Positions 2,273 to 25,617 of a stretch of DNA of 64,000 nt are shown here, in pieces. Within the stretch, counting starts at the first letter, position 1, and each line of letters starts with the position of its first letter. The translations under genes were made by a program, and so were the position numbers. The DNA comes from Alphaproteobacteria bacterium (GTDB lineage: Bacteria > Pseudomonadota > Alphaproteobacteria > Bin95), in assembly GCA_965222315.1 (NCBI GenBank), contig OZ244951.1, positions 962,407 to 1,026,406 of the forward strand, in the 5' to 3' direction. A model generated the notes under the pieces. The model was not told the DNA's origin. It searched no databases and saw only the letters and a program-made list of their open reading frames with translations.

Positions 2273-2418
2273 TAGATGGTCTTGGGCAAGAAAATGAAAA
2301 ATCTAGAACGAGTATCGTCTACGCGGACCTTTTATTTTGGTCGTATTTTGGGAGGCTGCGATTCATTGGCTCTGGCGCCAGAGTGTCAAGTTAGTGCATG
2401 ACCAAGTGGGAGGTAATA

Positions 2419-3471: not shown

Positions 3472-3524
3472 GCCGCGAGGCCGAAGAAACTTCCCCTGTT
3501 CCGCCAGCCAAAGGAGCTGTTTCG

Positions 3525-4505: not shown

Positions 4506-4579
4506 ATCGGGCCGACAGGCCCGACCCTAGCATTCTGGACCTTCCTCGCAATCGAACGAACCACCAAGGAGCAATGTTG

Positions 4580-6040: not shown

Positions 6041-6177
6041 GGGGGCCGCGCATTTAAGAAAGCCAGGGACGCCGAATGATCGCCGCGGCGTCCCCACCCC
6101 GGGAACCCGTTTCCAAAATGTTCGACGGCAGAGGGGGCTTCCCCGCAATCGACCCACACCAAACAAAGGATCTAGCG

Positions 6178-8070: not shown

Positions 8071-8084
8071 GGAAGGAGACTTTC

Positions 8085-10670: not shown

Positions 10671-10905
10671 ATTAGTATAACACGGATACATTAAATACGT
10701 AGTAGTCCAAAAATTGTTTCAGTCTATGCCTGCCTCAGGTGCGGATTGTCGTCATGTCTTTTCGGCATCGCGTTTTTCACATTGATTTGGCGTTTGAGTC
10801 GGGACTAGGCTGAATCTCAGAAGAACTACTCGGACCCGGCTTTCTAGCGGAAGGTTGAGAGGTGATTGGATAGCCTCATCGACGTCTGAAAGGCTGAATG
10901 CGTAG

Positions 10906-10977: not shown

Positions 10978-13275
10978 ATGGCAGTCGCAGTTTCATATCC
11001 GGGCGTCTATATCCAAGAGGTACCCAGTGGCTCGCGGGCCATTGCCGGGGTTCCGACATCGGTCGCCGCCTTTGTCGGCTACACGGCGCGGGGCGCGGTT
11101 AACGATGCGACCCAGATATTCTCGTTTGCCGATTTCGAGCGGCGCTTTGGCGGCCTGAGCCTTGACAGCGACCTCAGCTATACCGTGAACCATTTCTTTC
11201 TGAATGGCGGCGCGACGGCCTATATCGTAAGGGTCGCCTCAGGCGCTTCGGCGGCATCCGTAGGGTTGCTGACTGCACCCGGGGGCACGCTCACCCTGAC
11301 GGCGTCAGCCAAGTCCGAAGGGCAGTGGGGCAATGCGCTGCTGCTGAGCGTTGACTATGCAACGTCAAACCCGGCGAGCTTGTTCAACCTGACCGTCCGC
11401 GAGTTGGTGGAACGCAGCGGCCGCTTGGTCGAAGCCCGGGTCGAGACCCACCGCAATCTCTCGATGAACGCCTTCTCCGGCAATTATGCGGTGGATGCCG
11501 TTAGCGCGGCCTCAGACCTGATCGAACTGACCAACGAGGGCGCGGCCATCAACGGGCGCGGCGAATCCCGTAGCGGTGATCTGCTGGCCCTGCCGGCCGC
11601 GCTCGGCGACGATGTCCGGCGGCTCGCGGTTTCTCTGGACGGCGGATCGTTCTACGAGTTCGACATTTTCGATGCAGGCGCGCTGCCAGCCGATCTGCCT
11701 ACGCTCGCCGGAGCTATCCAAACCCGTGTGCGGGGGCTTGAGCCCGGAAACGGCGCATTCGACAATTTCGACTGTGATATCGACAGCAACCAGATCCGCG
11801 CGCGCTCCGGCACCAGCAACGACCAGCGTTCGTCGGTCACTTTTGCGCCTGCCTCGATCCGCAGCGCGGCGGCGGCGCTGACGCTGGGCCTCGCCCACGG
11901 CGGACGGGAGACGTCTGCCGCGGCTTCTGTCCGGCCTGCCGTCACCGGCACGGCGAGTGACCGCATCCCAGATTTCGCGGCCCTGGTGTTCGCCGATCCG
12001 GAGCAAATGACGGTCAATCTGATCGATTCAGGCGGCACGACCCTCGCGAGCGAAACTGTAACGTTGCAGGACACGGGCGCGGCGACCCCGGTCAACGCGC
12101 CAACCACCTTGGATGAAGCCCGCTCCGCCATAGAGGCGGCGATGCGCGCCAGCAGCAACCCGTCCTTCTCGCAAGCGCGGGTGAGTGTCATCGACCGGAC
12201 GCTCTACATAGTACCAGGCGGCGATACAGCCTCGAACCGGTTCGAATTTACCGGCGCGGGTGCAGCGACTCTGACCCTTTCCAACGGCACTGGCGGCGTC
12301 CCCAATGTGGCGGCCTTTCAACTCGGCACCGGCCCGACGGTTCAGGCGCAGCAGGCAGGCACGCCCGGCAATGATGGCTCCCCGCCAAGTCCGGTTGAAA
12401 TTCAGGGCTCGCGGGCGGCCAAAACCGGCCTCTTTGCCCTCGAAGACGCGGATCTGTTCAATATGCTGAACATTCCCGGCCTTTCCGACGCCGGCGTCCT
12501 CGCAACCGCGATCAGCTACGCCGAAGAGCGCCGGTCGATGATCCTGATTGATATGCCGTCGACAGTTAACGATTTCGATGAGGCGCGGGACTGGATCAAC
12601 GATCCGGCGAATGCCGGGCTCCGCCACCGCAACGCCGTGAGCTATTTCCCACGGGTGCGGCTCGCCGATCCATTGCAGGGCAACCGCCTGCGCACCTTCG
12701 CCAATGCCGGGTTGATGGCAGGGCTCTATGCCCGCACGGATGCCGCGCGCGGCGTCTGGAAAGCACCGGCTGGGATCGAAGCACGGTTGCGCGGGGTGCA
12801 GGCGCTGGAATATGTGCTGAGCGATCCGGAAAACGGCGTTCTGAACCCGCTCGGCCTGAACTGCCTCCGCACCTTCCCCGTGACGGGCTCCGTCAGTTGG
12901 GGCGCGCGTACCATGGTCGGGGCGGACGCCCTGGCGAGTGAGTGGAAATATGTTCCGGTCCGCCGCATCGCGCTCTTCATCGAAGAAAGCCTCTACCGCG
13001 GCACCCAGTTCGTCGTGTTTGAGCCGAATGACGAGCCGTTGTGGGCGCAAATTCGGCTTTCGGTCGGCGCCTTCATGAACAACCTGTTCCGCCAGGGCGC
13101 GTTCCAGGGCTCTACCCCGCAGGAAGCCTATTTCGTGCGCTGCGACAGTTCGACGACGACCCAGGCCGACATTGACCTGGGCATCGTCAACATCGCCGTA
13201 GGCTTCGCGCCGCTGAAACCGGCTGAGTTTGTCGTCATTCAAATCCAACAACTTGCCGGGCAAAGCCAGGCTTAA
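10978..13275 (+). CDS. eCIS/phage contractile tail sheath protein (766 aa). ATG 10978 is preceded by AAGGAG; the track ORF starts at GTG 10942.
   Basis: Hallmark N-terminus VSYPGVYIQEVPSGSRAIAGVPTSVAAFVGYTARG of the contractile sheath (Afp2-4/Pvc2-4/T4 gp18 family). The C-terminal conserved sheath core is present. Confidence 0.85.
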   Translation: MAVAVSYPGVYIQEVPSGSRAIAGVPTSVAAFVGYTARGAVNDATQIFSFADFERRFGGLSLDSDLSYTVNHFFLNGGATAYIVRVASGASAASVGLLTAPGGTLTLTASAKSEGQWGNALLLSVDYATSNPASLFNLTVRELVERSGRLVEARVETHRNLSMNAFSGNYAVDAVSAASDLIELTNEGAAINGRGESRSGDLLALPAALGDDVRRLAVSLDGGSFYEFDIFDAGALPADLPTLAGAIQTRVRGLEPGNGAFDNFDCDIDSNQIRARSGTSNDQRSSVTFAPASIRSAAAALTLGLAHGGRETSAAASVRPAVTGTASDRIPDFAALVFADPEQMTVNLIDSGGTTLASETVTLQDTGAATPVNAPTTLDEARSAIEAAMRASSNPSFSQARVSVIDRTLYIVPGGDTASNRFEFTGAGAATLTLSNGTGGVPNVAAFQLGTGPTVQAQQAGTPGNDGSPPSPVEIQGSRAAKTGLFALEDADLFNMLNIPGLSDAGVLATAISYAEERRSMILIDMPSTVNDFDEARDWINDPANAGLRHRNAVSYFPRVRLADPLQGNRLRTFANAGLMAGLYARTDAARGVWKAPAGIEARLRGVQALEYVLSDPENGVLNPLGLNCLRTFPVTGSVSWGARTMVGADALASEWKYVPVRRIALFIEESLYRGTQFVVFEPNDEPLWAQIRLSVGAFMNNLFRQGAFQGSTPQEAYFVRCDSSTTTQADIDLGIVNIAVGFAPLKPAEFVVIQIQQLAGQSQA

Positions 13276-13297: not shown

Positions 13298-13813
13298 ATG
13301 GCCGAATTCAGCGTTAACCCGCAGCGCTTCGACCCCTACAAAAACTTTAAGTTCCGCGTGCGCTGGGATGGCCGGTTTGTCGCCGGAGTCTCCAAGGTCG
13401 GCGCACTGAAGCGCACGACGGAAGTCGTGGAGCATCGCGTCGGCGGTGACAGCTCGACCAGCCGCAAATCCCCCGGGCGCTCCAAGTTCGAACCGATTAT
13501 GCTGGAGCGCGGCGTCACCCACGACGCCGACTTTGAGGCCTGGGCCAACCTCGTTTGGAATGTCGAAGCGGGATTGGGGGCGGAAGTCTCGCTCGCGAAC
13601 TTCCGCAAAGACATCATCATCGAGATGTATAACGAGGCCGGCCAACTCGCGATTGCCTACAAGGTGTTCCGCTGCTGGGTCTCGGAATTCCAGGCTCTGC
13701 CGGAATTGGACGCTAATGCGAATGCCGTCGCCATTCAGTCAATCAAACTCGAAAATGAGGGCTGGATTCGCGATACCGAGGTGGCCGAGCCAACCGAGCC
13801 GACGCTTGGTTAG
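13298..13813 (+). CDS. eCIS inner tube protein (T4 gp19/Afp1-like, 172 aa). Start at ATG 13298 after GAAGGAGGG.
   Basis: MAEFSVNPQRFDPYKNFKFRVRWDGRFVAGVSKVGAL.. matches the conserved N-terminal strand pattern of the tube family. It sits immediately after the sheath. Confidence 0.75.
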   Translation: MAEFSVNPQRFDPYKNFKFRVRWDGRFVAGVSKVGALKRTTEVVEHRVGGDSSTSRKSPGRSKFEPIMLERGVTHDADFEAWANLVWNVEAGLGAEVSLANFRKDIIIEMYNEAGQLAIAYKVFRCWVSEFQALPELDANANAVAIQSIKLENEGWIRDTEVAEPTEPTLG

Positions 13814-13844: not shown

Positions 13845-14537
13845 ATGACCTCTACCCTCTCGCCTGCCGCACTGCTCCAGGCTTGGGAAACCGCTGAAGG
13901 ACGAAGCACCATCGACCGGCCGCTGGTTCTGCTGTGGGCGGCGGGCGGCGGTGCTGATTTGGCCGATCGCCCCTTGGTGGAGCGCGACCGGGCGCTGCTG
14001 GCGCTCCGCCGGGCGACGTTCGGGGATGAGATGGTCTGCGTGACCGACTGCCCGGCCTGTGGTGAACGCCTGGAGATGGCTGTATCAGCCGCCGCCTTGG
14101 TCGATGCCCTGCCTGCGGCGGAGCCTGAAGTGCTGATGGCGGCGGGCCAAAGTGTGACGGTGCGACCGTTCTCCAGCCGCGACGTGGCCTTGGCCGCTTC
14201 AGATGCGGACGATTCGGAAACCGCCCTGGTGCGGCTTGCCTCCACGTGTGAGGGCGAGCCGTGGCAAGCGGCGCTCGCCTTGGCGGCAGAGCGCTTGCAG
14301 GAAATCCAGGCGGCCGCCGAATTGCGCTTCACGCTGACATGCGGGGCATGCGGCGAGGTTTGGACAGAGGTGCTGGACGTTGCTGCCTATGTCTGGGCGG
14401 AAGTGAGGACCGCCGCCTACCGCCTGTTGGGTGAGGTGGCGGAGATCGCAAGGGCGCTCGGCTGGTCAGAACGGGAGATTCTGGCTTTGAGCCCGGCCCG
14501 CCGCGCCGCCTATCTCCAGATTGCGAGAAGCGGATGA
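13845..14537 (+). CDS. eCIS-associated hypothetical protein (230 aa). It contains CxxC...CxxC pairs (CPACGERLE; CGACGEV), suggesting a zinc-ribbon.
   Basis: RBS GGAGGTG. Translationally coupled to downstream genes (ATGA overlap at 14534). Two CxxC motifs seen directly. Confidence 0.45.
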   Translation: MTSTLSPAALLQAWETAEGRSTIDRPLVLLWAAGGGADLADRPLVERDRALLALRRATFGDEMVCVTDCPACGERLEMAVSAAALVDALPAAEPEVLMAAGQSVTVRPFSSRDVALAASDADDSETALVRLASTCEGEPWQAALALAAERLQEIQAAAELRFTLTCGACGEVWTEVLDVAAYVWAEVRTAAYRLLGEVAEIARALGWSEREILALSPARRAAYLQIARSG

Positions 14538-15277
14538 CGAATCCTCTCGTCAATCTGATCGCCCGTGTCACCGGCCAGGCCGAGCCCCGCCTTCGCCCGC
14601 GCATCGCCTCGCGCTTTGAGGGCGGTGCGATGGCGGGCGAAGGCTTCCAGGAAGTGGCGGGCGAGCAGATTGTCCGCGCCCCGGAAACGCCAGCGCCTTC
14701 AATCGCTCCCCGGCCGCCCCAGCAACCGGCGCCAGCCGCCGAAACGATTGCTACCCAGCAGGGGAACACGGCAGCGCCTGTCGGGCAGCACGAACCCATC
14801 TTTCAGACATCAATCCGGGTAGAGCAGGAGGTTCCTGCTGCCCTGGTGCGCTCAACCGGAACCGCCACTCCGCCACCGCCCTTGATGCCGGAGGTTACGT
14901 CCTCCCCGGAAAACCATCACGAGACGGCACGGGAACCGGCTCTACCAGCGAGCCCGTTTGAGCCGGAGCAGGGGCCTCTATCGCAAGAGCCTCCCGAGCC
15001 CTTGCTCCCCCTGGAACCTCGGAAATTTGAACAAGGCCCGCCACAGCCTGCGCCGGATAGCGAGCCTTTCGCAGGGCTCTCCGCCCCCCAACCCAGCCGC
15101 CAACAGTCGGCAGCCTCCGGTGCCGTGCAGAACGAGCCACCGGAAATCGTCATCAATATTGGCCGTATTGACCTCCGTTCCCCGCCAGCCGCGCCGCCCG
15201 CGCCTCGCCCGCGCCCGCAGCGGCCCAAAACGACCGATCTCGGCGACTATCTGCGCGGCAAGGGGGGCAAGCGATGA
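14534..15277 (+). CDS. Pro/Ala/Gln-rich low-complexity protein (247 aa). Candidate tail-length tape-measure-like (Afp14 analog) or disordered scaffold.
   Basis: 4-nt start/stop overlaps on both sides. Extreme Pro/Glu/Gln content. Position upstream of the DUF4255 and ATPase genes, as for Afp14. Confidence 0.35.
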   Translation: MTNPLVNLIARVTGQAEPRLRPRIASRFEGGAMAGEGFQEVAGEQIVRAPETPAPSIAPRPPQQPAPAAETIATQQGNTAAPVGQHEPIFQTSIRVEQEVPAALVRSTGTATPPPPLMPEVTSSPENHHETAREPALPASPFEPEQGPLSQEPPEPLLPLEPRKFEQGPPQPAPDSEPFAGLSAPQPSRQQSAASGAVQNEPPEIVINIGRIDLRSPPAAPPAPRPRPQRPKTTDLGDYLRGKGGKR

Positions 15278-16611
15278 GCAACGTGCTTGCGATTGCGGCG
15301 GTGACCCAGTTGCTGAAGGACATGCTGAACGATGCCATGATCAATGGCGAGGTGAGTCAGGTGATGGGCGCGGATTTCGCCGTGACCGCGCTCCCGCCCG
15401 ACCGGGTGGTGAACGACCAGGCCGATCAGCAGCAGCCGACCCTGAACGTGTTTCTGCACCGCATCACGCCGAACGCGGCGCTCCAGCAGGATGACTTCCC
15501 GACCCGGGACAGCTCCGGCAGGCTAATCCGGCGGCCGCGGCTCGCGCTCAACCTGCATTATATGCTGACGGCCATCGGGGCTGACGAGCTTCAGGCGGAG
15601 ATCCTGCTCGGCTACGCCATGCAGATGTTTCACGAAACGCCGATCCTGGGCCGCGAGCAAATCCGAAGCGCGCTGCAACTCGCCGGCCCGCCCGATGACT
15701 TGCTGCCAGACAATCTGGGCTTGGTTCAGGCCGCCGCCCTCGCCGATCAGGCGGAACTCATCAAGATCACGCCGCATACGCTGTCCATGGACGATATGTC
15801 GAAGATGTGGACAGCGTTGCAGGCCCGCTACCGCACTACGGTCGCCTATGACGTGTCCCTGGTGCTGATCGAGCGTGAACTGCCGACCCGCCCGACCCTG
15901 CCGGTCCTCAGCCGCGGCGGCCTGCCGGACCCAGTAACGGGCCGCGACCCCGGCGTGCTGGTCCAGCCTAACCTGAATGCAACCGCGCCCTGCCTGCTTT
16001 CCATTGAGCCGCTGGACGGCCAGCCGGTGATGCGCCTCGGCGGGCAGGTGGCCCTGACCGGCGTCGGCTTCACCCGTGGCGATGCCCGCGTTCTTTTCAC
16101 CGAGCCCGGCACCGGCAGCGTGCTCGAACTCGCCCCGTTGGCCCCGGCAACCGACCGGCGGTTGGTCGTGCAACTGCCCGCGGGGCCGCCGCTCGCGGGC
16201 GCGCATCCGCTCGCCAACAGCGCCGCGGATCCGGGTGCATGGCGCATCGGGCCGTTTCACATAGAGGTGCGTCTGACTGAGCCCGATGGCCGCGAAACCC
16301 TGACCAACGCCCTGCCAGCCGCACTAGCGCCCGCAGCGGTACCCATGGCTGCGCCGGACCCCGGCGGCACCCTCATCACCATCGATACCGAGCCGCGCAT
16401 CCGCGCCGGTCAGCGCGTTGCCATCATCGTCGGGGGGGAGATGCAATTGCTGACTTCCCCCGGCGCACCGGCGGCGCAGGTGCAGGCGGTCTTTGCGGGC
16501 CTGCCATCCGGGGTTTCCCTGCCGATCCGCCTGCGGGTGGATGATGTCGATAGTCCGGTGATTGACCGCAGCACCGATCCGCCGAGCCTGATTACGGTGG
16601 CGATCCCATGA
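15274..16611 (+). CDS. DUF4255-type eCIS tail terminator/cap-like protein (Afp16/Pvc16 analog, 445 aa).
   Basis: N-terminus MSNVLAIAAVTQLLKDMLNDAM matches the conserved start of DUF4255 proteins found in eCIS loci. It is directly upstream of the AAA+ ATPase. Confidence 0.55.
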   Translation: MSNVLAIAAVTQLLKDMLNDAMINGEVSQVMGADFAVTALPPDRVVNDQADQQQPTLNVFLHRITPNAALQQDDFPTRDSSGRLIRRPRLALNLHYMLTAIGADELQAEILLGYAMQMFHETPILGREQIRSALQLAGPPDDLLPDNLGLVQAAALADQAELIKITPHTLSMDDMSKMWTALQARYRTTVAYDVSLVLIERELPTRPTLPVLSRGGLPDPVTGRDPGVLVQPNLNATAPCLLSIEPLDGQPVMRLGGQVALTGVGFTRGDARVLFTEPGTGSVLELAPLAPATDRRLVVQLPAGPPLAGAHPLANSAADPGAWRIGPFHIEVRLTEPDGRETLTNALPAALAPAAVPMAAPDPGGTLITIDTEPRIRAGQRVAIIVGGEMQLLTSPGAPAAQVQAVFAGLPSGVSLPIRLRVDDVDSPVIDRSTDPPSLITVAIP

Positions 16612-18533
16612 ACCAACCTGCCGCCTTCGAACCTCGACCATCTGCAACCGGGCGCATGCGCCAGGCGATGGCGGCGGCGGTTGCTGACCTTGGCGAGCGA
16701 TTGGCCGCCTTGTCGACTGGCGAGGAGCCGCAGCCCAAAGACGTGGCCCGCGATCTGGACTCACCGCTTTCCATGCTGGCGGACCTTTTCGGTCTGAATG
16801 GGGCGGAGCAGACCATGCTGCTGCTCGCCGCTGCGGCGGAACTGGAGCCACGCCTTTCCGACCAGATCCGTGCCATTTGCGGCAGCGAGCGCCCGGATGC
16901 CGGCCTCGCCCTGGCGCTAACGGCGGAGGAGGGGTGGGAGGCGCTCTGCCCGGAAGCGCCCCTGCGGCGCTGGCGGCTGGTCGAGCTTGTCGGCAACGGC
17001 CCGATGCTGCGGCGCTCGCTGGTGCTGGACGAGCGCATCACGCATTTTCTGATGGGCATTAACTATTGCGACGGGCGGCTGGAAGGAGTGGTCCGGCTGA
17101 TCGAACCCTCCCGACGCATCGGCGAACGGGAGCAGGCAGCCGCCGGCGCCATCACCGCCGCGTGGGATGAAACCGGCTGCCCGCTGACGGTCATCTTGCT
17201 GGCCAGTCCCGACCGCATCGCAAACCGCGAGGTAGCGGCTCACGGCGCCCGTGGTCTCCGCCTGCGTCTGCTGGCGATCGACGCCGCCGATATTCCGGGC
17301 GACCCGGCGGCGAGGCATGGCTTTGCGGTCCTTCTGGAGCGCGAACTGGTGCTCTCCGGCGCTGCGGCCTTCATTGAAGTTTCCGATGCGGCCGCCGCCC
17401 CGCAAGCCCAGCGTCTGGCCGACAGCCTGCAGGGGCCAACAATACTGGCAGGCGGCGATCCCCCGTTGCCCGCGCGTAGCCCCCGCCGCCGCATCGACCT
17501 TGCCGCGCCGGATCGGTTCGAGCGCCGGGCGTTTTGGCAGGATGCCCTCGGCATTCAGGCGCATGCGCTGGGGCCGGGTCTCGACCGGCTGGCGGAGCAG
17601 TTTGCGCTGGACAGGGGCGGGATCACGGCTACCGTCGAGAGTGCCGTCAATAGCGCGCCCGTCCCGCCGGAAAAGCTGCTGGGTAGCCTCTGGCAGGCGG
17701 CTCGGGTGCAGGGGCGCCGCCATCTGGACAGCCTTGCGAGCCGGATCGAAAGCCGTGCTACCTGGGATGACCTGGTGCTGCCCGCCGAGCCGATGGCGCA
17801 ACTGCGCGATTTGGCGGGGCATGTCCGTGAGTCCTGGCGTGTCCACCAGGAATGGGGCTGGGCCGCGAAGAGTGACCGCGGCCTGGGGGCGGCGGCGCTT
17901 TTCGCCGGGGCCTCCGGCACGGGCAAGACCCTGGCGGCAGAGGTGCTGGCCGGCGAATTGCAGCTCGATCTCTATCGCATCGACCTCAGCCAGGTGATCA
18001 GCAAATATATCGGCGAGACAGAAAAGAACCTTGCCCGCATTTTCGCGGCGGCGGAGGACGGCGGCGCAATCCTGCTGTTCGACGAAGCTGACGCCCTTTT
18101 CGGCAAGCGGAGCGAGGTGAAGGACAGCCACGACCGCTACGCCAACGTTGAAGTCTCCTACCTCCTCCAGCAGATGGAAGCCTACCGTGGCCTGGCGATC
18201 CTCACCACGAACCTGAAGAGCGCGGTCGATACCGCATTCCTTCGACGGCTGCGGTATGTGGTGAACTTTCCGTTCCCAGATGCTGCGGCGCGAGCCGCGA
18301 TCTGGGCGCGGATCTTCCCGCCTCAAACCCCTCTGGACCGTGTTGAGCCTGCACAGCTTGCCCGGCTGAGCATTACCGGTGGCGCAATCCGCTCCATCGC
18401 TTTGAATGCCGCATTCCTCGCCGCCGCCGATGCCAAAGCGGTAGCGTCCGCTCACATTCTGACCGCGGCAAGGCGCGAATACGCGAAGCTGGAGAAGCCC
18501 TTCACCCAGGCGGAGCAGGGGGCCTTCCGATGA
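16608..18533 (+). CDS. eCIS AAA+ ATPase (Afp15/Pvc15-like, 641 aa).
   Basis: Walker A GASGTGKTLAAEVLA. Walker B ILLFDEADALFGKR. Sensor/arginine finger region. Single C-terminal AAA module with a long N-terminal domain, typical of the eCIS ATPase. Confidence 0.85.
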   Translation: MNQPAAFEPRPSATGRMRQAMAAAVADLGERLAALSTGEEPQPKDVARDLDSPLSMLADLFGLNGAEQTMLLLAAAAELEPRLSDQIRAICGSERPDAGLALALTAEEGWEALCPEAPLRRWRLVELVGNGPMLRRSLVLDERITHFLMGINYCDGRLEGVVRLIEPSRRIGEREQAAAGAITAAWDETGCPLTVILLASPDRIANREVAAHGARGLRLRLLAIDAADIPGDPAARHGFAVLLERELVLSGAAAFIEVSDAAAAPQAQRLADSLQGPTILAGGDPPLPARSPRRRIDLAAPDRFERRAFWQDALGIQAHALGPGLDRLAEQFALDRGGITATVESAVNSAPVPPEKLLGSLWQAARVQGRRHLDSLASRIESRATWDDLVLPAEPMAQLRDLAGHVRESWRVHQEWGWAAKSDRGLGAAALFAGASGTGKTLAAEVLAGELQLDLYRIDLSQVISKYIGETEKNLARIFAAAEDGGAILLFDEADALFGKRSEVKDSHDRYANVEVSYLLQQMEAYRGLAILTTNLKSAVDTAFLRRLRYVVNFPFPDAAARAAIWARIFPPQTPLDRVEPAQLARLSITGGAIRSIALNAAFLAAADAKAVASAHILTAARREYAKLEKPFTQAEQGAFR

Positions 18534-18784
18534 GCCGTCAGCGCGTGACACTGCATATCGATCGCATCGTTATCGACGGGCCGCACATGTCCCGCGCCGC
18601 CCTGGCGGACGTAATTTTGGCGGAATTGCAGCGTGCGCTGTCAGCGCCCGGCGCGCTGGATGCCTTGAAGGGGGCCGGGTCCGTGCCGCGGGTTAACGCG
18701 GGCGAAGTGCGCCCCGCCAATTCGGGTCCCACGGGTCTCGGCACCGCCATCGCCCACGCAACCATGGGAGCGTTGAAGCGATGA
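18530..18784 (+). CDS. Small hypothetical protein (84 aa) translationally coupled between the ATPase and the first cargo candidate. Possible adaptor/chaperone.
   Basis: ATGA overlaps at both ends. No recognisable motif. Confidence 0.35.
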   Translation: MSRQRVTLHIDRIVIDGPHMSRAALADVILAELQRALSAPGALDALKGAGSVPRVNAGEVRPANSGPTGLGTAIAHATMGALKR

Positions 18785-20226
18785 AGACCCGCGCCAAACG
18801 CTCTCAAACAACCGCCAATCCTATTGCATTCGCCGGAAATGGCGGCCCGGCGGCCGCTGCGCCAGCGAGCGCGCCGCAACCCAAGCTGCAGGACCCGAAC
18901 CGCTTTCAGCAGGTTCACCAGAAGGTCCGGGTCTCCGGTCCTACCCGCCCGCCGCCCTCCGGCGGTGGCCCCGCGCAGAAGCGTAAGCCCTGGGTCGATC
19001 CCTCGGCGCCTGGCAAGATGGACGGTACTGATGGCGTCATCTTCAACCAGGCGTTCAATTTCCTCGATATGCGGAACTTCACGACCCCGTCGTCGAAAAA
19101 CACGACGGAGGCGAACCTGGACACCGATGCGGTCGATGCCCACAACCGGGTAAAGGGTCACTATCCGCAAATAACCTCTCCGCTCTCCGACAGCGCGATT
19201 GAGGGTGCGGTCAGCGTGTTCAAGCCATCGTCGATCAAAGGCGACATGGATTACCTGAATCAGTGGATGGACAATTTTATCGGCAAAATGTCGAAGGCCG
19301 ATGAATTTGACATTGATCCTTCGAACGCGGCCTACCGCGCGATGATCGAGAAACTGATCAAGGACAAGACCGTCGGCCCCAAAATCCTGATCCTCGCCTC
19401 CCGGCAATCGGCCTTCGCCCGTGGTGACGGCAGCAAGCGGGAGGTTTTCGTCCATTCGAAAGTGAAAGCCGCCGACCGGCGCACCACGCTGATCCACGAG
19501 CTGGTGCACTTCTACGCACACAAGACCTACCGGAAGTGGGTCGAAGCCTCGAAGGACGAGCGCCATTACAACGAGGGCCTGACCGAGTGGCTCGCGCGGA
19601 AAGTGATGACCGCCTCGGAATTGAGCGGCCGGAACAAATACCAGAACCGCGTCGATACGGTGAATAAGCAGATCGCGGCGCACATCCCGGAAGACGGAAT
19701 CGCCAGGGCCTTTTTCGGCGGGGAGGTCTGGCGCTTCGAAACCCGCAGCGACGAGGCGCGCGCGGCCTTCAAGACCGCGACGGGGATCGAGGAGGGAGCC
19801 AGCGCCGATGTGGAGCGGGAAGCGTCCCGTACCGGCGCGGGTCTGGTCCAGACCGTGGAACCGCGCAAGCACTACCGTTTCCTGAACCTGGGCTTTGCCG
19901 AGTCCCAGCCGAAAAGCGAGCATGAGGCGACCTTCAAGGGGGTAAAGGCTCAGACATTCGATAAGGATTCCTCGCTGAAATTCCGCTTTGTCGGCCATGC
20001 TTCCAGCCCCGGCAGTGAGGCCGCTAACAGGGAAGTCGCGCGCAAACGCTCGGTTGCCTTCTACCGGATGGCCCGGCGGGAAGGCGTTCCGTGGAACCGG
20101 CTGGCTGATGCCGCCCGCCCGCCGCATTTCGGCGAGAGCAAGCCCACCGTGACCGAAGAGGACGCCATCACCCGCGCCATGAACCGGCGGGTAGAGATGT
20201 TCCTGGTGAAGGGAACTGGGCCATGA
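18781..20226 (+). CDS. Putative eCIS cargo/effector. It has a disordered Pro/Gly-rich N-terminus, a central HExxH zinc-metallopeptidase-like motif (LIHELVHFYAH) and a C-terminal OmpA/MotB-like peptidoglycan-binding domain.
   Basis: HELVH motif seen directly. C-terminal ..FRFVGHASSPGSEAANREVARKRSVAFYRMARREGVPWNRLADAARPPHFGESKPTVTEEDAITRAMNRRVEMFLV matches the OmpA_C consensus (GHxD/S..G...N..LS..RA...L...G......GES.P.....NRRVE). Confidence 0.5.
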   Translation: MKTRAKRSQTTANPIAFAGNGGPAAAAPASAPQPKLQDPNRFQQVHQKVRVSGPTRPPPSGGGPAQKRKPWVDPSAPGKMDGTDGVIFNQAFNFLDMRNFTTPSSKNTTEANLDTDAVDAHNRVKGHYPQITSPLSDSAIEGAVSVFKPSSIKGDMDYLNQWMDNFIGKMSKADEFDIDPSNAAYRAMIEKLIKDKTVGPKILILASRQSAFARGDGSKREVFVHSKVKAADRRTTLIHELVHFYAHKTYRKWVEASKDERHYNEGLTEWLARKVMTASELSGRNKYQNRVDTVNKQIAAHIPEDGIARAFFGGEVWRFETRSDEARAAFKTATGIEEGASADVEREASRTGAGLVQTVEPRKHYRFLNLGFAESQPKSEHEATFKGVKAQTFDKDSSLKFRFVGHASSPGSEAANREVARKRSVAFYRMARREGVPWNRLADAARPPHFGESKPTVTEEDAITRAMNRRVEMFLVKGTGP

Positions 20227-22199
20227 GCGAGCGCGTCTTTACCGGTAACGATTTCGCCCCCGTTGCCGCCCGCAGACCGGAACCGGCGGAAAAGGTCCGC
20301 ATGGCCCTCGGCCTGCAAGCGAAGTTGCGGGTAAACGCCCCCGGCGACCACTGGGAACGGGAAGCCGACCGGATTGCCGATGCTGTCGTCGCAGAGCGAC
20401 CGGTCCCTCTCCAAAGCCCATTGCCGGTATCGCCGGCGCTCCAACGCCAGCCGGAGGAGGAAGAAGAGGAACTCCAGGCCAAGCCGGAGCCGCTACAGCG
20501 TCAGGCCGAGGAGGAGGAAGAAGAGGAATTGCTTCAGCCGAAGGCAGAGTCGCTACAGCGTCAGGCGGAGGAGGAGGAGGAAGAAGAAGAGATGCTCCAA
20601 CCCAAAGCCGGTGGCATCGCTCATGCTGAGTCCACGCCTGGCCCCGGTTTCGCAGCCGCGCTGGCCAGTGAAAGCCAAAGCGGCCAGGGCATCGACCATG
20701 CGACCCGCGCTGCCTTCGAGCCCCGCTTCGGCCGCGACCTCTCCTCGGTGCGATTGCACACGGGCGCGAGAGCCGAGCACCTCAGCCGTCAGATCAACGC
20801 GCGGGCCTTCACGCATCGCAACCACATCTATTTTGCCAACGGCCAGTTGGATACCCAAAGCCGTGAAGGCCGCCGTCTCCTCGCCCATGAGATCACCCAC
20901 ACCTTGCAACAGGGCGAGGACAGAGGCGATCTGGCGCGCGAGCCGCTACAGCGTCAAACCGGCCCGGGAACGCCTGCGGCTGCGCCCGCTCCCGGTGCCG
21001 CCCCTGGACCCGCCGCAGCACCGGCGGCTCCGACGCGACCGACTTCCGTCACGTTTAACTTTGATCCGACCATCGCCATTCCGCAAACACCGGGCGGGCT
21101 CACAGGCATGACCGCGAGCACGAACGGCACCAATGTCACTTGGTCGATCGCGGCTCATACCGCAGCCTCTGTAGCCGCGGGCACAACCATAAACGCTTCT
21201 ACGGGCGCTATCGCGCTCGATGCCGGACAGGTTGGGGGCCAGCTTCGGGTGACGGCAACCAATTCCGCAGGTTTTGCATTCAGCGATTTCCGGGTCGCCT
21301 CCACACCCACCGGCATCGATGCAACCTCGGTCTTGTCTGCTCTCAGCGGGACATCCAGCCCCTATGGCGCTGCCTTCCAGCACACCTTCACTAGCGCCAA
21401 TGGGTCTGCGACCGTGCTAGAGCAGCTGCGTATTGGCGAGCGGTTTCCGACAGCACCGACGCCGGCGGCTGCGACTCACCGTTTCGTCCCGCCGGCTTGG
21501 CCGTTTCACCCGCCGAGCTTCACCTTGAGCACTGGCACGCTTGCCAACAATGCTGCCGGCGCGTTCGTGCTCGACGCTAACGGGGAGTTCAATGCGCCGC
21601 CCGCAGGCTCGACCCTGATCCGGGGGGACAATGTCTCGGTTCCGCACGCCGCCATTGATGCAGGCGATCATGTGCAGAGCCATACGACGCCAGCGCCCAC
21701 GAACCGACTGCCGGTGACATTCTCGCTGGACCAGCAGTTCCACTTCTTCAATCCGCGCGCCGCTTCCGGCAGCCGCTGGACGCATTTCACTACGACGAAC
21801 CACAGCCGCACGCTCAGACGTAGCGGCACAGATCTGGAGGTGGTGACGACGGTCAACGGTGAGGAGCATGTGGACGATTACCAAGGCCCGCCCGCGTTCA
21901 CGAACCTCACTGCATCGCCCGTCAACACGCCGAAAAGCCGGCCGGCCCCGCCAGGCGGAGGAGCAGCCCCAGCTGCACGGACGGTTGCCCTCAGCGTCGA
22001 GCAAATCGGCGACCTGCCGGCTGGCCAAAGTGTGAGGTGGCGCTTCATCGGCAACCGGCGCGGCTGCACCCTCACACCCGATCCGAGCGACGCCACCCAG
22101 GCTGAGTTGACCGTCGGCACGACGGCTGGAACCGTTACAATCGAAGTATCGTTGAATACTGGCGGTAATGCCGACCGCGTTCAGGTGAGGATCGTTTGA
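20223..22199 (+). CDS. DUF4157-domain putative eCIS toxin/effector (658 aa) with an inserted Glu-rich tandem repeat and a C-terminal beta-rich domain of unknown function.
   Basis: DUF4157 hallmarks: GDHWEREADRIADAVV ... FEPRFGRDLSSVRLHTGARAEHLSRQINARAFTHRNHIYFANGQ...GRRLLAHEITHTLQQG (HExxH). DUF4157 is known to mark eCIS-associated toxin genes. Confidence 0.7.
   Translation: MSERVFTGNDFAPVAARRPEPAEKVRMALGLQAKLRVNAPGDHWEREADRIADAVVAERPVPLQSPLPVSPALQRQPEEEEEELQAKPEPLQRQAEEEEEEELLQPKAESLQRQAEEEEEEEEMLQPKAGGIAHAESTPGPGFAAALASESQSGQGIDHATRAAFEPRFGRDLSSVRLHTGARAEHLSRQINARAFTHRNHIYFANGQLDTQSREGRRLLAHEITHTLQQGEDRGDLAREPLQRQTGPGTPAAAPAPGAAPGPAAAPAAPTRPTSVTFNFDPTIAIPQTPGGLTGMTASTNGTNVTWSIAAHTAASVAAGTTINASTGAIALDAGQVGGQLRVTATNSAGFAFSDFRVASTPTGIDATSVLSALSGTSSPYGAAFQHTFTSANGSATVLEQLRIGERFPTAPTPAAATHRFVPPAWPFHPPSFTLSTGTLANNAAGAFVLDANGEFNAPPAGSTLIRGDNVSVPHAAIDAGDHVQSHTTPAPTNRLPVTFSLDQQFHFFNPRAASGSRWTHFTTTNHSRTLRRSGTDLEVVTTVNGEEHVDDYQGPPAFTNLTASPVNTPKSRPAPPGGGAAPAARTVALSVEQIGDLPAGQSVRWRFIGNRRGCTLTPDPSDATQAELTVGTTAGTVTIEVSLNTGGNADRVQVRIV
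20439..20604 (+). repeat. Three in-frame ~57-60 nt tandem repeats encoding LQRQ(P/A)EEEEEEE(L)LQ(A/P)K(P/A)E(P/S) inside the DUF4157 gene.
   Basis: Direct repeat visible in both the DNA and the protein (PEEEEEELQAKPEPLQRQAEEEEEEELLQPKAESLQRQAEEEEEEEEMLQPKA). Confidence 0.8.
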
Positions 22200-22855
22200 T
22201 GACCGGCTATCCCCGCTCCCCCCGTCTGACCCGCGCGGGCATCGTCCTGATCGGCCCGGAAAATGGCGCGGTCGAGCGGATCATCACGCTGCAATACACG
22301 CCCGACTCGCTCTCCCGCTCGCTGGAAGTGCAGGGCGTCGCCGATGAGCCGGACCGCTCCCAGCCGCTGCGTCTGACCGGACCTGCTGTTGAGACCATCA
22401 CGCTGGAGGCGGAACTGGACGCCACCGACCAGCTAGAATTCCCCGACCAGAACGCGGATGCGGCGGAGGTTGGGCTCTTCCCGATCCTCTCCGCGCTGGA
22501 AACAATGATCCATCCGACCGTGGCCCAGTTGGAACGCCAGAACCAACAAGCGGGCGCGGGTTCTTTCAGCATCACACCTGCGGAAACGTCGCTCGCTCTC
22601 TTCATCTGGAGCAAGAACCGGATAGCGCCGGTTCGCCTTACCAATCTTTCGATCACGGAGGAGTTTTTCGACCCCGCCCTGAACCCGATCCGGGCCAAGG
22701 TCAGCCTGACGTTGCGCGTGTTGAGCGTCGATGATCTGGGCTTCCGCCACCGCGGCGCGGGCCTCTATCTCTCCTACCTCCAAGCCAAAGAGCAGCTAGC
22801 TGCCCGCGCGCAAGGCGGCGAACTCTCCGCGTTTGGCATTGCCGGATTGCCCTGA
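22196..22855 (+). CDS. Second tube-family-like protein (219 aa; possible tube initiator, Afp5/Afp7 analog).
   Basis: ITLQYTPDSLSRSL.. and C-terminal KVSLTLRVLS strands resemble the gp19/Hcp-like tube fold. It sits just upstream of the LysM and spike genes. Weak, motif-level evidence only. Confidence 0.35.
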   Translation: MMTGYPRSPRLTRAGIVLIGPENGAVERIITLQYTPDSLSRSLEVQGVADEPDRSQPLRLTGPAVETITLEAELDATDQLEFPDQNADAAEVGLFPILSALETMIHPTVAQLERQNQQAGAGSFSITPAETSLALFIWSKNRIAPVRLTNLSITEEFFDPALNPIRAKVSLTLRVLSVDDLGFRHRGAGLYLSYLQAKEQLAARAQGGELSAFGIAGLP

Positions 22856-22886: not shown

Positions 22887-23246
22887 ATGAAGAACCCGAT
22901 CCAAGCCCTATTCGAAGCCGGCATCGTTGAGCGAACGGATTTCCCGGCCGACAGCCGCTACCACGGCATCCCCACTACCTCCATCGAGGGAAGCGCCGCC
23001 GGCGCCGTCACCTACCTGAAGCGCCGTTTCGCGCCCGCGCCGGAGGCGTTTGCCACGCTCCGCTATCGCCGCGTGACGCAGGGGGATCGCCTCGACCAGA
23101 TCGCCGCTGCCGAAGTCGGTAATCCGGAGGCTTTCTGGATGCTCGCGGATGCGAACGGCGTCATTTGGGCGGAAGAATTGGAGGAGCCTGGCAAGACGCT
23201 ACGCCTGACCCTCCCGGCCGGCGTTCCCGGGGCGGAAGAGGACTAG
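22887..23246 (+). CDS. LysM-like tail protein (P2 gpX-like, 119 aa).
   Basis: VTQGDRLDQIAAAEVGNPEAFWMLADANGV matches the LysM/tail-X pattern. Conserved position before the gpD-like hub. Confidence 0.55.
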   Translation: MKNPIQALFEAGIVERTDFPADSRYHGIPTTSIEGSAAGAVTYLKRRFAPAPEAFATLRYRRVTQGDRLDQIAAAEVGNPEAFWMLADANGVIWAEELEEPGKTLRLTLPAGVPGAEED

Positions 23247-23260
23247 AGACAGGCGTAACC

Positions 23261-24388
23261 ATGATCAAAACGATCGACCTCTCGCTGATGTTCGGGCCCG
23301 GCATTCCGGTTGCCGCCCCGCGCGAGGTTGTGGAAGCGTTGCAGTCAGTCTCAATCCAAGACAATGTGGGCGACACGCCCAGCGGCTTCGATCTGGTGTT
23401 CTCGCTGGAGAAGGACTCTCCACTCAATACCGTGTTCCTGTTGGCGGGCGGCGGCGCTCTGCCGATCCTGCGGGTCGCCCTGATCGCGACCATTAGCGGC
23501 CAGGCCACAACCTTAATCAACGGCGTCGTGACCCGTACCGAGATGACGCCCGGCAAAGGCAGTCAGCCCGCGACGCTGAAGGTGATGGGCCGCGACCTGA
23601 CGGCGACCATGGAAATCATCGATTTCTCCGGCATTCCTTATGTCGGCATGCCGCCCTTTGCCCGCGTCGCCTTGATCCTAGCGAAATACGCCTGGCTTGG
23701 CGTGATCCCGCAGGTGATTCCCTCTGCCGAAGGGCCGCCTTTGCCGACCGACCGCATTCCGCGGCATCAGGATTCCGACCTCGCCTATATCCGCCGCCTG
23801 GCTGACGAGGCCGGCTATACCTTCTTCATGAAGCCGGGACCGGCCCCGGCAACCAGCTTTGCCTATTGGGGGCCGGAAGTCCGGGTGGGGCAGGTGCAAC
23901 CGGCGCTGACGGTGGAGAGCGGCGTCACGACCAATGTCGAGGAACTGAGCTTCACCTTCGACAAGGACGGGACGGAGATACCCATCGTCTACATCCACAA
24001 TAAAGAGACCAAGGCGCCGATACCGATCCCCATCCCAAGCGCCATCCCGTTCCAGCCGCCCCTGGGCGCCGTCCCGCCCATTCCGCCGAAGATCACGCGG
24101 CTGACCAACACGGCCCAATTGAACCCGTTCGAGGCCATCGTCCGTGGGTTCGCTTATGCTGCGCGCCATTCCGATGCGGTGACCGGCACCGGGACGCTGG
24201 ATGTGCTTCGCTACGGGCGGCCGCTGAAGGCGCGCGGGCTCGTCGGCGTGCGCGGCGCGGGGCATGCCTTCGATGGCGTCCATTATGTCGAGTCCGTGCG
24301 GCACGAGTTGCAGCGCGGCTCCTACAAGCAGTCGTTCACGCTCAAGCGGTCCGGCCTTCTCCCCACGCAATCGGCGATACCGGCATGA
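23261..24388 (+). CDS. Phage late-control gpD-like baseplate hub protein (VgrG-N/gp27-like, 375 aa). Start at ATG 23261, not the track's 23165.
   Basis: MIKTIDLSLMFGPGIPVAAPREVVEALQSVSIQDNVGDTPSGFDLVFSLEK is characteristic of gpD/Afp8 N-termini. Confidence 0.7.
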   Translation: MIKTIDLSLMFGPGIPVAAPREVVEALQSVSIQDNVGDTPSGFDLVFSLEKDSPLNTVFLLAGGGALPILRVALIATISGQATTLINGVVTRTEMTPGKGSQPATLKVMGRDLTATMEIIDFSGIPYVGMPPFARVALILAKYAWLGVIPQVIPSAEGPPLPTDRIPRHQDSDLAYIRRLADEAGYTFFMKPGPAPATSFAYWGPEVRVGQVQPALTVESGVTTNVEELSFTFDKDGTEIPIVYIHNKETKAPIPIPIPSAIPFQPPLGAVPPIPPKITRLTNTAQLNPFEAIVRGFAYAARHSDAVTGTGTLDVLRYGRPLKARGLVGVRGAGHAFDGVHYVESVRHELQRGSYKQSFTLKRSGLLPTQSAIPA

Positions 24389-24894
24389 CACAGACCTACT
24401 ACGGCAAATATCGCGGCACGGTGGTGAACAATGTGGATCCGATGCTCATTGGCCGGGTGCAGGCGATTGTCCCGGCGGTTTCCTCCGTGGCGCTGACAAG
24501 CTGGGCCATGCCATGCTTCCCGATGAGCGGTATCCAGACCGGCTCGCTAGCCGTGCCGCCCATCGGGGCCGGTGTCTGGGTCGAGTTCGAAGGCGGCGAC
24601 CCGGACTATCCGATCTGGAGCGGCTGTTTCTACGGTAGCGCTGCGGAGGTCCCTGCGCTGCACCAGCTAACCCCGCCCGGCGTCTCCGCCGTCACCATGC
24701 AGACGATGCTGCAAAACGGCATCACGGTAACAGACCTGCCCGGCCCGACCGGCGGCATTGTCCTGAAGACGACGGCGGGCGCATCGCTGATCGTGAATGA
24801 CACCGGCATCTATATTTCCAATGGCCGCGGCGCGATGATCACGCTCGTCGGGCCGACCGTGACCGTGAACAACGGCGCGCTCACGGTGATTTAG
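24385..24894 (+). CDS. gpV/gp5-like baseplate spike (OB-fold + beta-helix tip, 169 aa).
   Basis: YRGTVVNNVDPMLIGRVQAIVP..GVWVEFEGGDPDYPIW is the conserved gpV/VgrG OB-domain signature. Confidence 0.75.
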   Translation: MTQTYYGKYRGTVVNNVDPMLIGRVQAIVPAVSSVALTSWAMPCFPMSGIQTGSLAVPPIGAGVWVEFEGGDPDYPIWSGCFYGSAAEVPALHQLTPPGVSAVTMQTMLQNGITVTDLPGPTGGIVLKTTAGASLIVNDTGIYISNGRGAMITLVGPTVTVNNGALTVI

Positions 24895-24914: not shown

Positions 24915-25235
24915 ATGCCCGGACCAATCCTGCATCTCGGCGCGACGCTTACCTGCAGCCATGGCGGCCAGGCACTGCCAGCCGCACCGTTCCCTCGGGT
25001 GACCGTTTCCGGCCAGCCGGTGGTGACCCAGACCTCGCCCTGGATGATAGCCGGGTGTCCGTTCGTGCCGACCGCTGGCAATGGGCCATGCGTGACCGGC
25101 ACGTTCGTGACGGCAGCGACCAGAGTGTTCGCAGGCGGCCAGCCGGTCGTTCTGATGGACAGCGTCAGCACCTGCATTCCTACCGGTACGCCAATGATCC
25201 CAGTGCAGGCGCAAACCCGCGTGATCGCGACCTGA
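24915..25235 (+). CDS. PAAR-repeat spike-tip protein (106 aa).
   Basis: Two PAAR-like motifs (GQPVVTQTSPWM.., GQPVVLMDSVSTCIPTG). Size and position after the spike gene. Confidence 0.7.
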   Translation: MPGPILHLGATLTCSHGGQALPAAPFPRVTVSGQPVVTQTSPWMIAGCPFVPTAGNGPCVTGTFVTAATRVFAGGQPVVLMDSVSTCIPTGTPMIPVQAQTRVIAT

Positions 25236-25254: not shown

Positions 25255-25617
25255 ATGCAGCTCGACTTCCCCTATCACTTCGACGGACGCAACCGGACCG
25301 CCGCGACCAGCGAGGCGGATCATATCCGGGACATGATCGAGCAAATCCTGTTCACCACGCCGGGTGAGCGGGTGAACCGGCCGGATTTCGGGGCGGGCGT
25401 GCTGCAATTGGTCTTTGGCCCGGCAAGCCCCGAAGCAGCCGCCACCGCTGAGTTGATGATTACCGGCGCGCTGCAACAATATCTCGGCCGCCGCATCACA
25501 CTCGCCGGGGTATCGACCGATGCGGACGACTCGACCCTGCGCATCCGCATCGCCTACCAGTTGAACAGCACCGGCGCGCAGGTGGTTGAAGAATTTGAGC
25601 GGGGGCTTGGCCCATGA
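25255..25617 (+). CDS. gp25/GPW-like baseplate wedge protein (120 aa).
   Basis: DHIRDMIEQILFTTPGERVNRPDFGAGV matches the conserved gp25 lysozyme-like core. Confidence 0.75.
   Translation: MQLDFPYHFDGRNRTAATSEADHIRDMIEQILFTTPGERVNRPDFGAGVLQLVFGPASPEAAATAELMITGALQQYLGRRITLAGVSTDADDSTLRIRIAYQLNSTGAQVVEEFERGLGP

Follow-up and report, generated by a model that had tools for sequence, protein, structure and literature searches.

Loci of the Afp/PVC type (subtype Ia) begin with the tube gene, carry the tape measure, ATPase and cap genes at the 3' end and encode their cargo downstream. The eCIS locus considered here, which lies on the + strand of a 64,000-nucleotide window of alphaproteobacterial DNA (the whole stretch that was analysed, to which all coordinates refer), follows another order: sheath, tube, X, Pro-rich protein, DUF4255 cap, ATPase, an 84-aa protein, cargo1, cargo2, a second tube protein (tube2), baseplate and fibre. 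The initial annotation took this arrangement for an unusual one, with effectors inserted mid-operon, and for a likely sign of either an ancient rearrangement or a distinct eCIS subtype. We asked whether the order is indeed peculiar to this locus or is the norm of a lineage already described, and conclude that the locus is an ordinary new representative of the known lineage II injection systems.

Gene content of the locus

Reading the open reading frames (ORFs) together with their family matches bore out the gene order given initially, and left the labels 'LysM' and 'I', which have no family match, resting on position and on conservation in relatives. The locus opens with a 765-aa, Afp2/Cis2-like sheath protein (10978-13275; Phage_sheath_1C, 3.4e-09 in the family profile search), whose start we placed at the ATG at 10978 from the 765-aa length of its relatives. 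Its best solved relatives are 9ezm (Cis2 of Halogeometricum borinquense, 1.2e-73) and 8bky/8bl4, of which 8bky is Cis2 of S. coelicolor; Pvc2 and Afp2 rank behind these. The inner tube protein (13298-13813; 171 aa, Afp1/gp19-like) matches TIGR02241 at 2.4e-42 and, weakly, the CIS1/CIS5 families, and is 100% identical in one relative locus (L001). The X gene (13845-14537) encodes a protein with CxxC motifs whose matches, to T4_baseplate and zinc-ribbon families, all fall below threshold, and a PDB search returned no relative of it; nonetheless, in the survey of relatives described below, an X homologue lies between the tube and cap genes in 48 of the 63 evaluable loci. The Pro-rich protein (14534-15277) likewise had no match above threshold in family searches that included PHROGs. 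Its positional homologues, present in most loci, share conserved N- and C-terminal motifs around a variable middle and are usually ~230-300 aa long, with single ORFs reaching 980 and 1050 aa, and we regard the protein as a candidate length-determining or tape-measure-like component. The tail terminator or cap protein (Afp16-like, DUF4255; 15274-16611; 445 aa) matches Pvc16_N at 4.9e-45 over residues 9-212 and continues into a C-terminal extension of ~230 aa; a search of solved structures gave no meaningful match to it. The 641-aa Afp15-like AAA+ ATPase (16608-18533) combines WHD and AAA (1.6e-24) matches and has at least 8000 homologues in the search.

The ATPase gene is followed by the 84-aa ORF (18530-18784), which has no match in Pfam or PHROGs. 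Homologues with the core motif 'iELHIeELVLhGf' and a helix follow the ATPase gene in 39 of 52 loci, although some synteny labels, those of this protein in particular, depend on short, weak matches and owe most of their support to position. Equating the 84-aa protein with Afp6/DUF5908 found no support, as none of eight family members matched DUF5908 even at E<=10, whereas a Serratia control matched at 2e-13. By eye, the N-terminal motifs of the 84-aa protein and of Afp6/DUF5908 proteins look alike.

Downstream of the two cargo genes the baseplate module begins with tube2 (22199-22855; 218 aa), an Afp5-like tube initiator whose CIS_tube match (4.3e-4) is below threshold but whose Bradyrhizobium orthologue has a recorded CIS_tube match; solved structures yielded no meaningful match. 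The next ORF, of 119 aa (22887-23246), contains a LysM-like motif by eye and is conserved in position among relatives, and matches no Pfam or PHROG family even at E<=10. It is followed by a gp27-like hub (23261-24388; weak Phage_GPD match), a gp5 OB spike (24385-24894; Phage_base_V, 5.6e-19), a PAAR-like protein (24915-25235; weak PAAR_motif/DUF4280 matches) and gp25 (25255-25617; GPW_gp25, 1.8e-17). Two Afp11-like proteins come next, J (25614-28139) and J2 (28136-30928), which are conserved as a pair in relatives. J matches Baseplate_J at 2.5e-05 (24.1 bits against a curated cutoff of 21.1) and its best PDB match is 9gtp, a baseplate J-like protein of the S. coelicolor CIS (5.1e-16); the Baseplate_J match of J2 is weak and below threshold. 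A 716-aa protein in the wedge position (30925-33075) had no match in family or solved-structure searches. The last gene encodes the tail fibre (33094-36408), in which DUF6519 (1.5e-34), a baseplate-attachment domain catalogued as the eCIS fibre domain eBAP5, is joined to a beta-helix (Beta_helix, 1.5e-08).

The cargo genes had been described as coupled to their neighbours by five ATGA overlaps. Four of these are present (16608, 18530, 18781 and 20223). At the fifth, 22196, the sequence is TTGATGA and the cargo2 stop codon occupies 22197-22199, so that tube2 likely starts at the ATG at 22199 in a 1-nt TGATG overlap with cargo2, a start with which the gene calls of relatives concur. Further ATGA overlaps occur at 14534, 15274, 24385, 25614, 28136 and 30925. 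Since 10 of the 18 junctions of the locus carry an ATGA overlap, such coupling characterises the operon as a whole and is not peculiar to the cargo genes. Scans for promoters and terminators gave counts no higher than expected from shuffled sequence and are uninformative on internal signals.

Synteny and lineage placement

The gene order was compared with that of 80 loci obtained in a genome scan through relatives of the ATPase, using stop-to-stop ORFs and profiles built from first-round matches. These loci come from Chloroflexota, Verrucomicrobiota, Acidobacteriota, Gemmatimonadota, Bacteroidota, Actinomycetota, methanogenic archaea and proteobacteria. The order sheath, tube, X, Pvc16, ATPase was found in 48 of the 63 evaluable loci, and a second tube gene lies downstream in 52 of the 80. 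The interval between the ATPase gene and this second tube gene, henceforth referred to as the slot, contains zero, one, two, three or four DUF4157 ORFs in 12, 27, 8, 4 and 1 of these 52 loci, respectively; hence 40 of the 52 carry one to four such genes there and tube2 is the first gene after the slot in all 52. The slot is not obligatory, because 12 of the 52 loci have no DUF4157 ORF in it. Closer to the locus, the same order is shared by a metagenome contig with 90% ATPase identity, by Pelagibius and by Bradyrhizobium, with two, three and one cargo genes in the slot, respectively.

Gene orders that are specific to individual subtypes of lineage II are described in the text of Chen et al. 2019. 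Of the core eCIS backbone given there, the tube, sheath, spike, gp25, J, ATPase and DUF4255 terminator are present here, with the 119-aa ORF as a candidate for the LysM protein (Afp7), and the features that this text gives for subtypes IIa and IIc, namely two afp11 copies, a split afp8 and the presence of afp10, correspond to the J and J2 genes, to the separate hub (gp27) and OB spike (gp5) ORFs, and to the weakly matching PAAR-like gene. Counterparts of afp6 and afp14 are absent or unrecognisable, with no DUF5908 or tape-measure match in family searches including PHROGs, and the sheath and J proteins are nearest to those of solved lineage II systems. Judged by that text, the locus matches lineage II, subtype IIa or IIc. 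The organisation of subtype Ia is not seen, as the ATPase and cap genes lie upstream of the baseplate genes and the spike is split into two ORFs. The region from X to tube2 is thus very probably the middle of a single, tightly coupled lineage II CIS operon whose gene order is normal for its lineage.

The cargo slot

Cargo1 (18781-20226) is predicted, from its AF2 model (pLDDT 86.5) and fold matches, to consist of a disordered N-terminus (residues 1-37), a helical zincin-like domain with HExxH and EGxxE motifs and a C-terminal OmpA-like, peptidoglycan-binding domain, the last matching OmpA, Pal and MotB folds with target TM-scores of at most 0.84. Residues H239, E240, H243, E265, G266 and E269 are invariant across 48 sequences. 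Of the 48 non-identical homologues 41 have an N-terminal DUF4157 domain, which cargo1 itself lacks, and no signal peptide is evident in cargo1 by eye. Cargo1 shows the Cgo-like cargo architecture in part, with its disordered N-terminus and effector-like body but no DUF4157, and is a putative effector. Cargo2 (20223-22199) has the full architecture of DUF4157-type CIS cargo: a disordered, acidic N-terminus with a 20-aa repeat (tandem repeat at 20453-20590; AF2 pLDDT <50 over most of residues 1-137), a DUF4157/eCIS_core domain (1.8e-26, residues 157-232) and an ordered all-beta C-terminal region (pLDDT >90 over most of residues 270-658) whose fold matches are tandem Ig-like domains. The N-terminus and DUF4157 of cargo2 are common to proteins with many other C-terminal domains. 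Its own C-terminal region contains no recognisable toxic domain, being Ig-like only, and could be structural or adhesive.

Beside the order and domain content observed at the locus, we infer loading and delivery of both proteins along the following lines. Cargo1 and cargo2 would be translated from the transcript that also encodes the particle, would be recruited by contacts of the disordered N-terminus and/or DUF4157 with the complex of spike and tube initiator, would be loaded by the ATPase into the tube lumen and would be expelled upon contraction. In AlgoCIS the DUF4157 proteins Cgo1 and Cgo2 lie inside the tube lumen, their N-terminal domain (NTD) is needed for loading and Alg15 mediates loading (PMC8894135, PROCIS preprint); it is because of Alg15 that we assign a putative role in cargo loading to the ATPase.

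We considered whether the slot genes might instead encode assembly or structural factors, for instance spike-associated proteins or relatives of tape measures, or a cell-wall enzyme for particle release, and not delivered cargo at all. DUF4157 figures in the literature as a core eCIS domain whose role is unknown. One DUF4157 protein, Tme, is akin to tape measure proteins and co-purified with the tip (PAAR-like) protein as well as with the spike and tube initiator (PMC11126660). Moreover, the C-terminus of cargo2 is only Ig-like, and peptidoglycan binding by cargo1, as suggested by its fold, would also suit lysis of the producer. However, the number of DUF4157 genes in the slot and their C-terminal domains vary widely among relatives, as effectors typically do and structural parts do not, and the cargo genes diverge faster than the structural genes (79-84% against 95-100% identity to the metagenome contig with 90% ATPase identity). 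Together with the lumenal position of the AlgoCIS DUF4157 proteins and the lack of an evident signal peptide in cargo1, this makes a non-cargo role improbable.

It is still less probable that the cargo genes arrived recently as a mobile cassette, even though IS/integrase fragments flank the locus (10162-10458 and 37237-37644) and the cargo repertoire differs among relatives. The IS fragments border the whole locus and not the slot, and the 4-nt overlaps are intact on both sides. Orthologues of both cargo genes occupy the same slot of the metagenome contig, and a cargo1 orthologue (65% identity) occupies that of Pelagibius, whose ATPase shares only 59% identity. The GC3 values of the cargo genes (0.78 and 0.71) show no anomaly, falling within the operon range of 0.69-0.82. 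A recent insertion was therefore rejected on GC3 and orthologue position, and the description of the effectors as 'inserted' finds no sign of an insertion event behind it.

Discussion

Two observations favour an undescribed eCIS subtype, or a rearrangement specific to this lineage that shifted the ATPase and terminator genes upstream and placed effectors mid-operon: the order differs from that of Afp/PVC, as we confirmed directly on Serratia plasmid pELP1.10, and the ATPase is at most ~50% identical to its genome-scan relatives. Either reading is nevertheless hardly tenable. The same order recurs in 48 of the 63 evaluable loci, which span many phyla, and on an annotated plasmid from Mycobacterium; a subtype-specific organisation of lineage II (in the text of Chen et al. 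2019) and mid-cluster DUF4157 effectors (PMC11126660, PMC11566945) are published; and cargo GC3 lies in the operon range. The order does mark a subtype distinct from Afp/PVC, one of the two readings offered in the initial annotation, but one that is already described; the claim of novelty fails because this order is the norm there, the very outcome of a synteny comparison that had been named as refuting it.

As posed, the locus matters little, adding one alphaproteobacterial member to a catalogued lineage. The survey, on the other hand, shows the constancy of the junction between ATPase and tube initiator genes as a cargo slot across phyla. It also shows X, the Pro-rich protein and the 84-aa protein to be conserved unnamed genes that might supply the parts said to be missing from lineage II. 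One proposal, which we put forward tentatively and hold to be doubtful, is that these three replace the parts reported missing and, separately, that cargo1 is a zincin effector directed at peptidoglycan which has lost its DUF4157. The Pro-rich protein could then be the length-determining protein said in the Streptomyces CIS papers to be absent from those systems, the 84-aa protein could be a divergent Afp6 counterpart, and cargo1, after shedding its own DUF4157 module, could be loaded via its DUF4157-bearing neighbour.

Among known systems, Afp/PVC shares with the locus the tube, sheath, spike, gp25, baseplate J, AAA ATPase and DUF4255 cap, and differs, besides its order, in its three sheath genes, in its Afp6 (DUF5908) and Afp14 (tape measure) genes and in a VgrG encoded by a single gene; on pELP1.10 (L086) the tube gene is followed by three sheath genes and then, after some further genes, by those for the tape measure, ATPase and Pvc16, beyond which lie unannotated genes. 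AlgoCIS resembles the locus in the AAA+ ATPase of its cluster and in the three-part layout of Cgo1 and Cgo2 (NTD, DUF4157, CTD), which is also that of cargo2, but belongs to clade Ib and has no sequence similarity outside DUF4157. The clade IIa CIS of H. borinquense (PMC11566945) provides the closest solved sheath, has two cis11 genes and, according to its published description, carries DUF4157 genes mid-cluster between two structural subclusters; the Halogeometricum plasmid was not found among the 60 plasmid matches listed. This system differs in being archaeal and membrane-anchored with a T6SS-like mode, and nine genes, toxin-immunity pairs among them, occupy its 8.7-kb spacer. In clusters of the Streptomyces davawensis type (Nagakubo et al. 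2024, PMC11126660), whose synteny is conserved across distant phyla, the DUF4157 effector gene lies directly upstream of the baseplate genes, immediately 5' of those for tube initiator and spike. Adjacency to DUF4157 is a recognised effector feature in the literature, where a DUF4157 protein has been tested for interaction with tube initiator, hub and spike proteins. The Streptomyces loci of our scan read sheath, tube, X, cap, ATPase, DUF4157 and tube2 and are presumably of this type. In the S. davawensis type the slot is taken up by a single, very large effector that is related to tape measures and has a nuclease at its C-terminus, whereas here it comprises two genes of medium size whose products end in zincin/OmpA-like and Ig-like regions. 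The present locus further differs in its pair of J genes and its fibre with DUF6519. Finally, plasmid pMYCSM01 of Mycobacterium sp. JS623 (RefSeq) is actinobacterial and plasmid-borne, and one of its DUF4157 proteins is 1819 aa long, but it matches the locus gene for gene in order, with similar sizes and 4-nt overlaps, including a 75-aa gene after the ATPase gene and two DUF4157 genes before a 218-aa gene.

Gene content and junctions of the operon

Family scans along the plus-strand run, which extends from ~10978 to 36408 as a single long series of co-directional genes, confirmed the gene order described in the initial annotation. Most of its genes have a family match: the sheath (Phage_sheath_1C), the tube (TIGR02241, 2.4e-42), the cap protein (DUF4255/Pvc16_N, 15274-16611, 4.9e-45), the AAA ATPase, which also has a winged-helix domain, cargo2 (DUF4157/eCIS_core, 1.8e-26), tube2 (a second tube-family protein with a weak CIS_tube match), the spike with a gp5-type OB fold, gp25, two Baseplate_J proteins and the fibre, in which DUF6519 is combined with a beta-helix. 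The labels ‘LysM’ and ‘I’ found no family in these scans. The ATGA stop/start overlaps proposed to couple the cargo genes to their neighbours are present at 16608, 18530, 18781 and 20223 but not at 22196, where the junction reads TTGATGA, the cargo2 stop lies at 22197-22199 and the likely tube2 start, backed by gene calls in relatives, is the ATG at 22199. Since identical ATGA overlaps occur at six more junctions, coupling is an operon-wide property and not peculiar to the cargo genes.

The same gene order is found across many phyla

How unusual this order is was assessed in three ways, from ATPase relatives at close to moderate distance, from a genome scan and from annotated records. The order is identical in a metagenome contig (L001, 90% ATPase identity), in Pelagibius (59%) and in Bradyrhizobium (51%), the three differing in how many DUF4157 genes lie between tube2 and the small gene that follows the ATPase (this interval is henceforth referred to as the slot, and in the window it holds cargo1 and cargo2). 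A single scan of species-representative genomes with the ATPase alignment yielded 80 loci from Chloroflexota, Verrucomicrobiota, Acidobacteriota, Gemmatimonadota, Bacteroidota, Actinomycetota and Cyanobacteria, and also from methanogenic archaea and several proteobacterial classes. Stop-to-stop ORFs of these loci were searched with 19 window proteins and then with profiles built from the first-round matches. Upstream order was scored in the 63 loci with at least 5.5 kb 5' of the ATPase, and in 48 of these it was sheath, tube, X (the gene at 13845-14537 in the window), cap, ATPase. A second tube gene lay downstream on the same strand in 52 loci, and in 39 of these the ATPase gene is directly followed by one for a homologue of the 84-aa protein; the slot contained no DUF4157 ORF in 12 of the 52, one in 27, two in eight, three in four and four in one. 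Eleven of the 15 exceptions to the upstream order are cyanobacterial, and two others seem to have arisen from overlapping ORF calls. The cyanobacterial loci (L010, L017, L018, L026, L033, L046, L049, L063, L069, L071 and L076; ATPase identity 40-46%) are arranged differently, their sheath and tube genes being missing from the flank, on the opposite strand or 3' of the ATPase, and may represent the organisation of a different subtype.

Among annotated records, plasmid pMYCSM01 of Mycobacterium sp. JS623 carries the same order gene for gene, with matching gene sizes and the same 4-nt overlaps. In contrast, the Afp/PVC order, seen on a Serratia plasmid, places the tape measure, ATPase and Pvc16 genes at the 3' end. 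The order shared by relatives, scan loci and an annotated plasmid thus shows that the window's gene order is the norm for a lineage spread over many phyla. Neither GC3 nor orthologue position in the 90% relative gave any sign of a recent insertion at cargo1 and cargo2: GC3 of both genes falls inside the operon's range, and their orthologues occupy the same place in the relative. The slot genes are 79-84% identical to those of the relative versus 95-100% for the structural genes, and this faster divergence is as expected for effectors.

Slot proteins and their possible action

In cargo1 (481 aa), a disordered stretch (residues 1-37) is followed by a helical domain in which the motifs HExxH and EGxxE are invariant and by an OmpA-like peptidoglycan-binding fold at the C-terminus, which suggests the bacterial cell envelope as a possible site of action. 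A homologue search returned 49 proteins, one identical to cargo1; 41 of the 48 others have an N-terminal DUF4157, which is absent from cargo1 and its nearest relatives. The Pelagibius orthologue (L003:12180-13916), 65% identical over residues 36-481, has this domain. Earlier publications mention both effectors that lack DUF4157 and adjoin a DUF4157 gene and predicted effectors that bear peptidoglycan-binding domains.

The N-terminal 137 residues of cargo2 (658 aa) are predicted to be mostly disordered and are acidic. They include a 60-nt tandem repeat (2.3 copies, 20453-20590) encoding 20-aa acidic units ‘EEEEEE-LQPK..LQRQ’, and its copy number is variable, since the 90% relative has ~2 more units. 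A well-predicted DUF4157 (residues 157-232) and a Pro/Ala linker precede an all-beta region of ~390 residues, the model of which resembles tandem Ig-like domains. Hundreds of proteins share the N-terminus and DUF4157, with C-termini that include Aspzincin_M35, VanY, YkuD, OmpA and ATLF, a pattern characteristic of polymorphic effectors. AlgoCIS Cgo1 and Cgo2, which are located in the tube lumen (PMC8894135), have the same three-part layout.

Gene order, domain content, slot conservation and variable slot contents are shown by the present analysis. By analogy with the cited systems, the slot proteins would be made together with the particle, recruited through their disordered N-termini and through DUF4157 contacts with the spike/tube-initiator complex, loaded into the tube by the ATPase and ejected upon contraction. 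As to extracellular action, the fibre, with its DUF6519 (eBAP5) domain, speaks for the binding of a target, but those lineage II systems that have been characterised are either cytoplasmic or anchored to a membrane.

Conserved genes of unassigned family

The conserved unnamed genes are the sole part of the locus that might repay more work. X is conserved and contains CxxC motifs, with sub-threshold matches only. The Pro-rich protein (14534-15277) has positional homologues between X and Pvc16 in most lineage II loci (L005-L084), which share an N-terminal ‘MSDYL..LA.R....PR....FE’ and a C-terminal ‘SLDDYL..R’ motif and vary in length in the middle; they are usually ~230-300 aa, but single ORFs reach 980 aa (L012, a Methanothrix locus) and 1050 aa (L070). 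The Streptomyces coelicolor structural paper describes particles of fixed length, yet a cluster in which no tape measure gene is found, and the Pro-rich protein is a candidate for the length ruler of a lineage said to have no such gene. The 84-aa protein (18530-18784) belongs to a conserved family with the core ‘iELHIeELVLhGf’ and a helix; it resembles Afp6/DUF5908 at the N-terminus by eye only, and none of eight members matched DUF5908 in Pfam. In the cap protein (445 aa) the Pvc16_N domain spans residues 9-212 only, and the C-terminal extension of ~230 aa has neither a family match nor a solved relative.

Surroundings of the locus

Similarity to the 90% relative starts at 10679, just 3' of an IS6-type DDE transposase fragment (10162-10458, within 9932-10678). 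At the matching upstream position the relative encodes a 541-aa Trans_reg_C regulator, a homologue of which is absent throughout the window. Further upstream, three DUF1254/DUF1214 paralogues (2398-3471, ~4103-6040 and 8085-9083) are interleaved with genes for a MetA-pathway outer-membrane protein and an alkyl sulfatase-like protein; this group (2398-9083) bears no relation to the injection system. The stretch 3' of the fibre gene (36439-38710) contains a 177-aa ORF of no family, an integrase-core (rve) fragment (37237-37644) and, on the minus strand, a LuxR/GerE regulator (37874-38710). An association of GerE regulators with eCIS has been reported, and this one may serve either the eCIS or the adjacent minus-strand Pel-type exopolysaccharide operon (39196-45578), which includes PelG and a PelF-like GT4 glycosyltransferase with DUF3492.

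Comparison with published systems

In the classification of Chen et al. 2019, eCIS comprise two lineages, I (subtypes Ia and Ib) and II (subtypes IIa to IId). Each has a conserved gene organisation of its own, and every subtype includes two or three conserved genes in which no known domain is recognised. Lineage II generally lacks afp6 and afp14; two afp11 copies occur in IIa and IIc, afp8 is split into gp27 and gp5 ORFs in IIa, IIb and IIc, and afp10 is missing only from IIb. By these features the window locus matches IIa or IIc. Among solved structures, its sheath is nearest to those of Halogeometricum (IIa) and S. coelicolor (IId), and its J protein to the baseplate J-like protein of S. coelicolor. 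The initial annotation had taken effectors between the ATPase and the baseplate as a sign of an ancient rearrangement or a distinct subtype. The order itself was essentially described correctly, but its proposed novelty does not hold: the order is normal for a lineage spread over many phyla and matches the literature, the outcome that the annotation had itself named as contradicting it, and mid-cluster cargo is already published. A DUF4157-containing spacer separates two structural subclusters in Halogeometricum borinquense (PMC11566945), and the S. coelicolor effector genes sco4256-4258 fall inside the cluster range sco4242-4260. In Streptomyces davawensis-type clusters, the synteny of which is conserved across phyla, the DUF4157 effector Tme lies directly 5' of the baseplate genes (Nagakubo et al. 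2024, PMC11126660). Compared with these systems, the locus is a further member of a known lineage with the usual gene order.
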